Virus record (IMG/VR): IMGVR_UViG_3300031949_000034
Span: 1 to 61,630 of that record
From: a virus
Taxonomy: Duplodnaviria > Caudoviricetes
DNA: 61,630 nucleotides
Direction: 5' to 3' (one strand)
The notes under the pieces: model-generated
The model's database searches: none
What the model saw: only the letters and a program-made list of their open reading frames with translations
Told to the model about the DNA's origin: nothing
Program-made: the position numbers and the translations under genes
Shown here: positions 6,967 through 7,860 of the stretch, piece by piece
Layout: each line of letters starts with the position of its first letter
Position numbering within the stretch: the first letter of the stretch is position 1

Positions 6967-7860
6967 CTCGCAGGCGAGTTCGGAACGCGGGACGAGCGCC
7001 AGTCCGCCCAGCCCGTCGCCTTTACCCGAGTGATCTGCTCGCAGGCGAGTTCGGAACGCGGGACGAGCGCCAGTGTAGCACCCAGGTGGGTGGCGGCCAC
7101 CCAGCGCTACTCTCGCAGGCGAGTTCGGAACGCGGGACGAGCGCCAGAAGGCAGTCGAGGCGATGTTCGCGCCGGCTCCGCGGCTCGCAGGCGAGTTCGG
7201 AACGCGGGACGAGCGCCAGTTCGCGTCGAGCGGCGTCGTTTCGAACGTCGATCCCTCCTCCTCGCAGGCGAGTTCGGAACGCGGGACGAGCGCCAGTCGC
7301 TCCAGGACACCACGATCACGGTGTTGCTGCCCTCGCAGGCGAGTTCGGAACGCGGGACGAGCGCCAGAGCTCGCGACCGTCGGCATGCACGAACTCCTCG
7401 CATTGCGGACTCGCAGGCGAGTTCGGAACGCGGGACGAGCGCCAGCCAATCGGAGCGCTCCTCCAGGAGCGTCGCCCATGACTCGCAGGCGAGTTCGGAA
7501 CGCGGGACGAGCGCCAGAAGAGCGACCCTCTCGTGATGTCGTCGCTCGACTTGCCCTCGCAGGCGAGTTCGGAACGCGGGACGAGCGCCAGCTTGCACCG
7601 GCCACGGGGGCGACGATCGCGGCGAACTCGCAGGCGAGTTCGGAACGCGGGACGAGCGCCAGCCCGATCTCCTCGTGCTGGACGCGCGGGTGAAGAGCGC
7701 TCGCAGGCGAGTTCGGAACGCGGAACGAACGCCAGAGGACCATGAACCCCCAGAGGCATGCCACCGAGTCGACTCTCGCAGGCGAGTTCGGAACGCGGAT
7801 CGAACGCCAGGAGGAGCAATTGGAGAAGCGTCAGGCTTCAGGGCGCGGAACGAATGCCAG
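6967..7860 (+). CRISPR. CRISPR array, 36-bp repeat CTCGCAGGCGAGTTCGGAACGCGGGACGAGCGCCAG; 12 full repeats plus a degenerate remnant; 11 spacers of 35-42 bp
   Basis: Repeat starts 6967, 7038, 7112, 7184, 7261, 7332, 7410, 7482, 7556, 7627, 7700, 7775; the last two diverge; remnant ends at 7860. Strand inferred from trailer decay. Confidence 0.97.

Follow-up and report, generated by a model that had tools for sequence, protein, structure and literature searches.

IMG/VR virus record IMGVR_UViG_3300031949_000034 (Duplodnaviria; Caudoviricetes) is a linear sequence of 61,630 bp, with a CheckV completeness of about 45%, which carries a CRISPR array at positions 6967-7860. The window analysed here is the whole of this record (G000; the related viral genomes compared with it are G001-G006), and the term 'virus-borne', which a preliminary description made from the sequence alone had given to the array, is therefore correct. 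The array is preceded on the same strand by a conserved, structured RNA element and a predicted promoter, and these lie together between the gene of a giant tyrosine recombinase and a convergent gene (Table 1).

Table 1. Features of the CRISPR locus of G000 and of its single near-self target (positions in the window).
Feature	Position	Strand	Remarks
Recombinase gene, left boundary of insert	2451-6512	+	1353 aa; neighbour, not partner
Predicted promoter, sigma-70-like	6499-6528	+	TTGACG, 18 nt, TATCTT; consensus match only
Tandem octamer, operator-like	6510-6526	+	sits between the two promoter hexamers
Structured scaffold, tracrRNA/omega-RNA-like	6587-6966	+	homologous (blastn, alignment, nhmmer) to RNA 3' of the TnpB/Cas12f-like genes of G001 and G005
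Anti-repeat	6801-6839	+	pairs with repeat positions 1-34, 28 base pairs
Most conserved scaffold block	6896-6923	+	near-invariant in G000, G001 and G005; ~45 nt upstream of first repeat
CRISPR array	6967-7860	+	10 identical and 2 decayed 36-nt repeats, 24-nt remnant; 11 full spacers
Spacer 5	7297-7331	+	33/35 positions match 59136..59102
Convergent gene, right boundary of insert	7875-8312	-	homologue directly 3' of recombinase in relatives
Near-self protospacer of spacer 5	59102-59136	-	inside unannotated gene 58748-59386 (+)

The repeat unit, CTCGCAGGCGAGTTCGGAACGCGGGACGAGCGCCAG, is 36 nt long, begins with CTCG and terminates in GCCAG, and a direct reading bears out the earlier remark that it has neither a GTTT start nor a GAAA(C/G) end; as a class 1 or type II repeat it would be atypical. 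The mismatch-free copies start at 6967, 7038, 7112, 7184, 7261, 7332, 7410, 7482, 7556 and 7627; they are followed by decayed copies at 7700 (2 mismatches) and 7775 (3 mismatches), and by the 3' remnant at 7837-7860, which has 83% identity to the decayed copy serving as reference for the repeat finder. Start-to-start distances are 71-78 nt, and a control pattern made from the reversed unit gave 0 matches. The extracted spacers measure, in order, 35, 38, 36, 41, 35, 42, 36, 38, 35, 37 and 39 nt, confirming both the number and the range of 35-42 bp first given; all 11 are unique within the array, and a short twelfth unit precedes the remnant. With 12 full repeats, near-identical and within the 23-50-nt range of CRISPR repeats, and 11 unique spacers of similar length, the locus has the properties of a generic CRISPR array. 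Repeat coordinates likewise uphold the observation that the ten identical copies adjoin the supposed leader, decay being confined to the end distant from 6966, and this polarity is common to all four arrays (G000, G001, G005 and G006). A k-mer scan also flagged short candidate repeat runs in G001, G002, G005 and G006. By itself the repeat is unstructured, folding no better than shuffles on either strand; a hairpin repeat of class 1 type was excluded for that reason.

Profiles for Cas1 (PF01867) and Cas2 (PF09827) found nothing in the five records searched (the window and the complete genomes G001, G002, G005 and G006), so the absence of cas1 and cas2 from the window stands as first described. 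No Cas protein was found among 39 further open reading frames (ORFs) of the window scanned with Pfam, PHROGs or NCBIfam, and no effector was found in its 61.6 kb by tblastn, protein search or PF07282. The polar acquisition that had been read from the decay is an inference only: the same polarity recurs in G001, G005 and G006, but the complete relatives carry no adaptation genes.

What had been called a putative leader is no plain leader; it is a conserved, structured RNA with an anti-repeat. When 6530-6966 (437 nt) was folded, the z score was -2.63 on the + strand against -0.19 on the - strand. Rfam returned no family at 6400-8000 up to an E value of 1, and in the record only a transfer-messenger RNA (tmRNA) passed the gathering threshold. 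Homology was found by blastn of 6530-7874 against five related records, with matches in G005 (E 5.9e-10) and G001 (E 3.8e-6 and 0.0135), and nhmmer placed a single scaffold copy in each of G000 (6587-6965, E 1.3e-86), G001 and G005, and none in G002, G003, G004, G006 or 33 metagenome loci. Roughly a quarter to a third of positions differ between the window scaffold and those of G001 and G005, and a motif upstream of the G006 array, CTCGCAAA, resembles the most conserved scaffold block. When translated, the window scaffold is also similar (~25-35% identity) to the tails of effector ORFs in ten or more other members of the family described below, and the scaffold is therefore family-wide.

The anti-repeat is where this RNA and the array meet. 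Their predicted duplex has an energy of -49.2 kcal/mol, compared with a mean of -36.1 (standard deviation 2.9) for shuffled leaders, and none of 100 shuffles equalled it. In an alignment (A4) of the three scaffolds of G000, G001 and G005 joined to their first repeats, RNAalifold paired the anti-repeat with the first repeat; across the three loci 88% of the cells in 34 pairs are paired, and 16 pairs have changed on both sides. This covariation was equalled in none of 500 shuffles, and sliding the partner by 1-3 columns left only 32-42% paired. For G000 and G001, cognate repeat/anti-repeat duplexes outscored non-cognate ones. An adjacent RNA with an anti-repeat, the mark of type V systems that depend on a trans-activating CRISPR RNA (tracrRNA), is thus present, with 28 bp in the window and 16/34 compensatory pairs. 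The term 'orphan array' accordingly holds in that cas1, cas2 and an effector are missing from the window, and fails in that the array has a tracrRNA-like scaffold of its own, homologous to RNA adjacent to TnpB/Cas12f-like genes in relatives.

The sole public run found to contain the window, X1, is a soil metagenome for which contigs only were used; no RNA run was listed as containing it. In it 6712-6850 lies on two contigs with depths of 13.2 and 13.6, one identical to the window and the other with 8 substitutions and 4 indels (~91% identity over that interval); a CCA-insertion variant at 6601 has a depth of 14.9 of 28.3. For the recombinase gene there is single coverage, with a depth of 13.4, and the array itself is fragmented among the contigs. 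The second copy hints at a diverged scaffold in the same genome.

Both G001 and G005 have a TnpB/Cas12f-like gene whose final codons lead into a scaffold of ~350-390 nt and then into an array, whose 36-nt repeats end in CAG as does that of G000. A Cas12/TnpB-fold effector gene beside the RNA locus, which characterizes type V systems, is therefore to be found in both these relatives and is missing from the window. Their products, P0025 (G001) and P0026 (G005), match the Pfam families Cas12f1-like_TNB (5e-15 and 2e-14, respectively), HTH_OrfB_IS605 and OrfB_IS605. The closest sequences in PDB are TnpBs (8iaz, 8.5e-26; ISDra2, 1e-19), with Cas12f at 1e-6 to 1e-3, and the AF2 (AlphaFold2) model, confident over a core of residues 1-484, ranks TnpB first by fold (8iaz, E 2.6e-23, TMt 0.65) and Cas12f after it. 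Since the top matches in both sequence and fold are TnpBs (8iaz, 8h1j, 8bf8) and Cas12f stands below them, the effector appears not to group with Cas12f (V-F). The family has ~30 members, mostly on virus-sized contigs; a search of 185,579 species genomes returned distant TnpBs only (20-32% identity), and a search of IMG/VR only G001, G005 and three distant TnpBs. Effector genes occur in just two of seven related records, G001 and G005, so carriers and non-carriers coexist, and G006 carries a different Cas12-like gene.

Two observations on these loci are recorded in their own right. The effector ORFs of G001 and G005 (L056 5883-7802 (-) and L057 6205-8013 (-)) reach their first stop inside the first CRISPR repeat, such that a tail of ~120 codons, disordered in the model, is read from scaffold DNA. 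The G006 locus (96022-99936; L097, L093) contains the different Cas12-like ORF, with a weak match to PF07282 (1.7e-6) and a C terminus bearing a zinc ribbon and a NADY motif, together with a small gene and an array of 20 repeats of another 36-nt unit.

The catalytic site of the effector family was compared in an alignment of 33 of 46 sequences, comprising 28 family members and 5 outgroup TnpBs; near-duplicates (P0027, P0030, P0032, P0035 and P0049) and eight distant TnpBs were left out. At RuvC-II, where the canonical residue is Glu, all 28 members have Arg and all five outgroup TnpBs have Glu. RuvC-I, canonically Asp, is Glu in 22/28 and Asp in 6/28 members, and RuvC-III, also canonically Asp, is Asp in 25/28 and Glu in 3/28; the outgroup has Asp at both positions in 5/5. 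By this alignment the canonical D-E-D triad of RuvC is not kept in the family. Given Arg at RuvC-II and mostly Glu at RuvC-I, the complex probably binds and silences DNA without cutting it, by analogy with Cas12k and with Cas12m and TldR as these are described (PMC10442227; 10.1101/2023.11.30.569447).

Scaffold and array were inserted as a single cassette. By guanine-cytosine (GC) content at third codon positions, the only convincing genes adjoining the array are the recombinase gene and the convergent gene. All six related genomes carry the recombinase, followed by homologues of 7875-8312, 8318-8758, 8768-9370 and onward, and in G001, G002 and G005 the homologue of 7875-8312 starts only ~8-14 nt after the recombinase; in G001, for example, the recombinase ends at 125109 and the next gene occupies 125537..125124. 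Because the two genes abut in relatives, 6513-7874 (1362 nt) is an insertion at their junction. Homology to G001 and G005 begins at ~6587, exactly where their effector genes end. The predicted promoter begins just 5' of the recombinase stop codon (6510-6512) and is directed into the scaffold and array; it is the sole promoter-like site in 6300-8500, the mean for shuffles being 0.1. Besides the exact tandem octamer within it, a second site with 3 mismatches occurs at 57294-57310 (-), with 0 expected by chance, and the octamer may be an operator common to several viral promoters. The counterpart of the G001 region with the effector locus falls outside the window.

Searching the spacers, as had been proposed, gave one convincing result, the match of spacer 5 to its own genome at 33/35 positions, with mismatches at spacer positions 13 and 26; the sequence ...GTAGCGA borders the protospacer 5' and GCCCGAT... 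borders it 3'. Phage and plasmid collections held no match to any G000 spacer, a degenerate pattern of spacer 5 had none in IMG/VR, and a comparison of the spacers with the relatives gave weak partial hits and no match. The candidate pairing of spacer 6 with an SNF2 helicase gene (13591-13606) was rejected; it shares an exact 16-mer and only 21/42 positions overall, and is probably due to chance. Each of the three arrays of G000, G001 and G005 has one near-self spacer, the others being spacer 6 of G001 (33/36 positions) and spacer 5 of G005 (35/39), the latter matching a family-conserved gene that precedes the recombinase. Such mismatches are compatible with spacers taken from a homologous gene of a related virus. 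One near-self spacer per array accordingly points to related viruses as targets, and the mismatch pattern agrees with the use of viral arrays in inter-virus competition as described in PMC11656645. The earlier suggestion that spacers may target competing viruses is thus plausible on account of the near-self spacers in G000, G001 and G005, and goes no further than one spacer of 11, there being no other convincing match.

We consider it likely that 6499-7860 is the guide-RNA cassette of a virus-borne, tracrRNA-dependent, TnpB-derived (type V-like) CRISPR system, whose effector is absent from the window and is likely to be supplied in trans. The promoter would drive a structured RNA of ~430 nt, the anti-repeat of which would base-pair with each 36-nt repeat, and the array would supply guides consisting of repeat and spacer. 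The natural protein partner would be a compact TnpB/Cas12f-fold effector of the sort encoded directly 5' of the scaffold in G001 and G005, most likely encoded in the half of the genome still unsequenced, and loaded in trans, and the resulting complex would bind and silence DNA rather than cut it. If, as we suppose, the spacers were drawn from homologous genes of related viruses, the likely use of the cassette is competition with those relatives; it might alternatively regulate genes of the virus itself.

Several points weigh against this interpretation. Supply of the effector in trans is a guess, with no effector gene in hand for G000, and tblastx of the effector neighbourhoods of G001 and G005 against the window gave noise, with no synteny in the flanks (the output being noisy). 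Duplex energy by itself is weak evidence in DNA of 67% GC: among 1520 windows on both strands of the first 20 kb, an unrelated site at 4466 (-) scored -49.4, equal to the anti-repeat. The covariation test comprises three sequences only, and the best cognate duplex of G005 lies off the homologous site, pairing there being seen only in the alignment-based fold. The second scaffold copy in X1 could come from a co-abundant strain. An acidic residue directly follows the RuvC-II Arg in 16/28 family members, such that a one-residue shift in register could restore the carboxylate; 'nuclease-dead' is thus not proven. Only 1/11 spacers has a convincing match anywhere, and the flanks of the three near-self protospacers available share no motif, so that neither a protospacer-adjacent nor a target-adjacent motif (PAM or TAM) was derived.

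The strongest of the alternatives, which we nevertheless think unlikely, is that the locus is a relic: the effector was lost when the cassette moved or when the recombinase region was rearranged, and the scaffold and array were recently orphaned and are non-functional. A relic could account for the lack of an effector in 61.6 kb, for a homology to relatives which breaks off precisely where the effector gene has its final codons (~6587), for the decayed distal repeats, and for the match of a single spacer in 11. It sits poorly with ten repeats (360 nt) which have stayed without substitution while the scaffold came to differ from its G001 and G005 counterparts at roughly one position in three or four, with an anti-repeat pairing intact over 28 bp, with a promoter containing a virus-specific operator-like motif exactly upstream, and with a second scaffold copy of equal depth in the sample.

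It is improbable, in our view, that the cassette is an RNA-only hijacking device, whose tracrRNA and array are taken up by the RuvC-degenerate, TnpB-like protein that a related virus, co-infecting or resident, provides, and either redirect that protein against conserved genes of the relative or soak it up. A cassette with its own predicted promoter and without a protein gene is what such a device would look like. The single matched spacer hits a gene of its own genome (33/35), the near-self target of G005 lies in a family-conserved gene, effector carriers (two of seven related records) coexist with non-carriers, and guide RNAs without an effector have a precedent in phages opposing Cas9, as described in 10.64898/2026.06.01.729453. 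Against this, a second scaffold of equal depth is better explained by a cognate locus in the same genome, the window represents only ~45% of that genome, and the scaffold has diverged by at least a quarter from those of G001 and G005, which makes cross-loading uncertain.

Known viral mini-arrays carry host-type repeats and depend on host Cas proteins. That the present array is an ordinary orphan of this kind, served by a class 1 or type II CRISPR-Cas system of the host for both interference and adaptation, is very improbable, in spite of the lack of cas genes in the window, the wide range of spacer lengths (35-42 nt) and the known existence of virus-borne arrays using host Cas (PMC6858448, PMC11656645, as far as these describe them). 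The scaffold before it is homologous to that of TnpB-like effectors, and its anti-repeat co-varies with the repeat. The repeat search, also proposed earlier, found no match to the 36-mer in IMG/VR, and the 5' 24-mer of the repeat was without an exact match among 185,579 species genomes. A sample of 401 genomes from the phylum of G007 gave 3 weak hits, all of them outside arrays. No identical or near-identical host repeat was thus found in the genomes sampled, which may not include the host; G007 and G008 themselves yielded nothing useful. The known subtype with a host supplying everything, which the preliminary description had itself held out as the alternative, has therefore not appeared. 

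We give almost no credence to the remaining alternative, that the array belongs to the giant recombinase (its repeats being recombination sites, or its RNA guiding a recombinase that adds spacers): the recombinase gene is the next one upstream, in the same orientation, and one relative, L026, shows a comparable association, but the recombinase is present in 6/6 relatives and, in a scan of G002, G003 and G004, came without a comparable array, the scaffold and array of G001 and G005 lie ~25-27 kb away from it beside the TnpB-like gene, an array occurs within 10 kb in only one of 39 other loci, where the repeat is unrelated in sequence, and the window repeat has no copy in the window's own recombinase gene. 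Repeat and recombinase do not, then, co-occur across relatives, with L026 and its different repeat the sole exception. Nor does the recombinase recommend itself as a source of adaptation, as had been suggested, given that the next gene directly follows it in relatives and that G002-G004 showed no comparable array in the scan; its adjacency to the array is a matter of chance, the site being a hot spot for cargo.

The more ambitious composite reading we consider unlikely as a whole. It states that a family of soil and sediment viruses of ~135-140 kb carries an unnamed CRISPR-associated TnpB lineage, with Arg at RuvC-II, a long anti-repeat scaffold and relative-derived spacers, and in addition that the autonomous cassette of G000 programs an effector made elsewhere, possibly that of a competitor (guide-RNA hijack).

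The loci surveyed for the recombinase, 6 viral and 33 from metagenomes (L009-L047, some of them duplicates), were fetched by alignment; a scan of IMG/VR with the single protein gave nothing, and the alignment scans found the loci. The product of 2451-6512 is a tyrosine recombinase with Pfam Phage_integrase at residues 469-540 and with XerA and XerD as best PDB sequence hits; it has 22 full-length homologues, and its C-terminal ~800 residues gave no lead in Pfam, PDB or Atlas. Members of the family measure 1260-1530 aa and show conservation from end to end in every related virus, with many invariant positions among the C-terminal ~800 residues. On L026, a 17-kb contig, an array of 36-nt hairpin repeats (13800-16128) lies 1.3 kb downstream of the recombinase and runs off the contig end. 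A 28/28-nt copy of that repeat is found within the recombinase gene, at the 3' end of its coding sequence, an inverted copy (23/24 nt) occurs 14 kb upstream (1491-1514 in L026 coordinates), and the first spacer has 25 nt in common with the neighbouring gene. Elsewhere in the window, 9724-12711 holds two glycosyltransferase genes and a lone GroES gene, kept in 6/6 relatives in the same order after the recombinase; a complete tmRNA gene is present at 14799-15150 (-) (Rfam 94.6 bits; ARAGORN tag ENDNAQLVAA), adjoined by an HNH-AP2 ORF at 15138-15704.

Compared with known systems, the proposed system is closest to TnpB with its omega-RNA and to Cas12f (V-F). The effector of the relatives has the TnpB/Cas12f fold and domains, and their scaffold, in the manner of an omega-RNA, takes its start from the effector ORF's 3' end; the pairing of anti-repeat with repeat and the lack of adaptation genes recall tracrRNA-dependent type V systems. 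It differs from TnpB and Cas12f in that the effector sequence is nearer to TnpB than to Cas12f, with a degenerate RuvC triad (E or D / R / D), in the ~380-nt length of the scaffold and, for the window, in an RNA module situated apart from any effector gene. Cas12m (V-M) has been described as a small effector of type V whose RuvC site departs from the canonical one and which silences by binding, plasmids and some prophages being its carriers and mobile elements employing it to compete with one another (PMC10442227, PMC11656645); Cas12m2 is reported to use a single CRISPR RNA (crRNA) and to have an HDD triad (PMC10442227). Here there is a long anti-repeat scaffold and a triad of E/R/D type, and the effector of the relatives matches the fold of Cas12m2 weakly (TM score 0.37-0.38, rank 19-20) and the sequence of UnCas12m4a at an E value of 0.52. 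The combination that defines V-M (single crRNA, HDD RuvC and a REC insertion of Cas12m type) is thus not found, a scaffold being present and the triad being E or D / R / D.

TldRs are known to work with a single fixed guide. They are presented as phage-carried descendants of TnpB with a dead RuvC, acting as RNA-guided repressors through 'naturally occurring guide RNAs' (10.1101/2023.11.30.569447), and the system described here is set apart from them, by description, in having a multi-spacer CRISPR array with an anti-repeat. Viral mini-arrays without cas genes, with spacers matching related viruses, are also on record (PMC6858448, PMC11656645); the present array differs from these in having its own tracrRNA-like scaffold and a protein partner which, in relatives, is virus-encoded. 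Cas12r of Thermus Lalka phages (10.64898/2026.04.20.719267) and MvCas12m of myxophage MV-1 (10.64898/2026.09.14.751636) are both described as lacking cas1, cas2 and cas4, and both are proposed to act in conflicts between mobile elements. MV-1 as described shares an integrase, glycosyltransferases and a DnaJ-like protein with the virus family of G000. MvCas12m, which could be compared by description only, is reported to have an intact D/E/D triad and no recognizable tracrRNA (10.64898/2026.09.14.751636).

Adaptation-less type V systems in viruses, binding-only Cas12 proteins, nuclease-dead TnpB descendants and viral mini-arrays are all in print (PMC11656645, PMC10442227, 10.64898/2026.04.20.719267, 10.64898/2026.09.14.751636). 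In the main text of open-access papers and preprints we found no CRISPR-associated TnpB lineage with Arg at RuvC-II, no such lineage with an anti-repeat scaffold of ~380 nt, and no stand-alone cassette of tracrRNA and array belonging to such a system. What began as an orphan array of unknown type thus becomes a testable proposition, the RNA half of a miniature TnpB-derived system. Three cognate sets of scaffold and repeat (G000, G001 and G005), together with ~30 effector homologues, provide a covariation series for a new guide architecture, and the Arg present at RuvC-II in every member suggests a protein that naturally binds rather than cuts, of interest for inter-virus conflict and also as a programmable repressor of small size. 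A parallel to the RNA module itself is provided by vsgRNAs, described as phage loci in which a class 2 system is represented by its RNA half alone (10.64898/2026.06.01.729453). The vsgRNAs are single fused guides directed at host Cas9, whereas the cassette of G000 comprises a full array and a separate anti-repeat scaffold of TnpB type, and its physical separation from the effector raises the question of whether viruses trade or steal guide RNAs.

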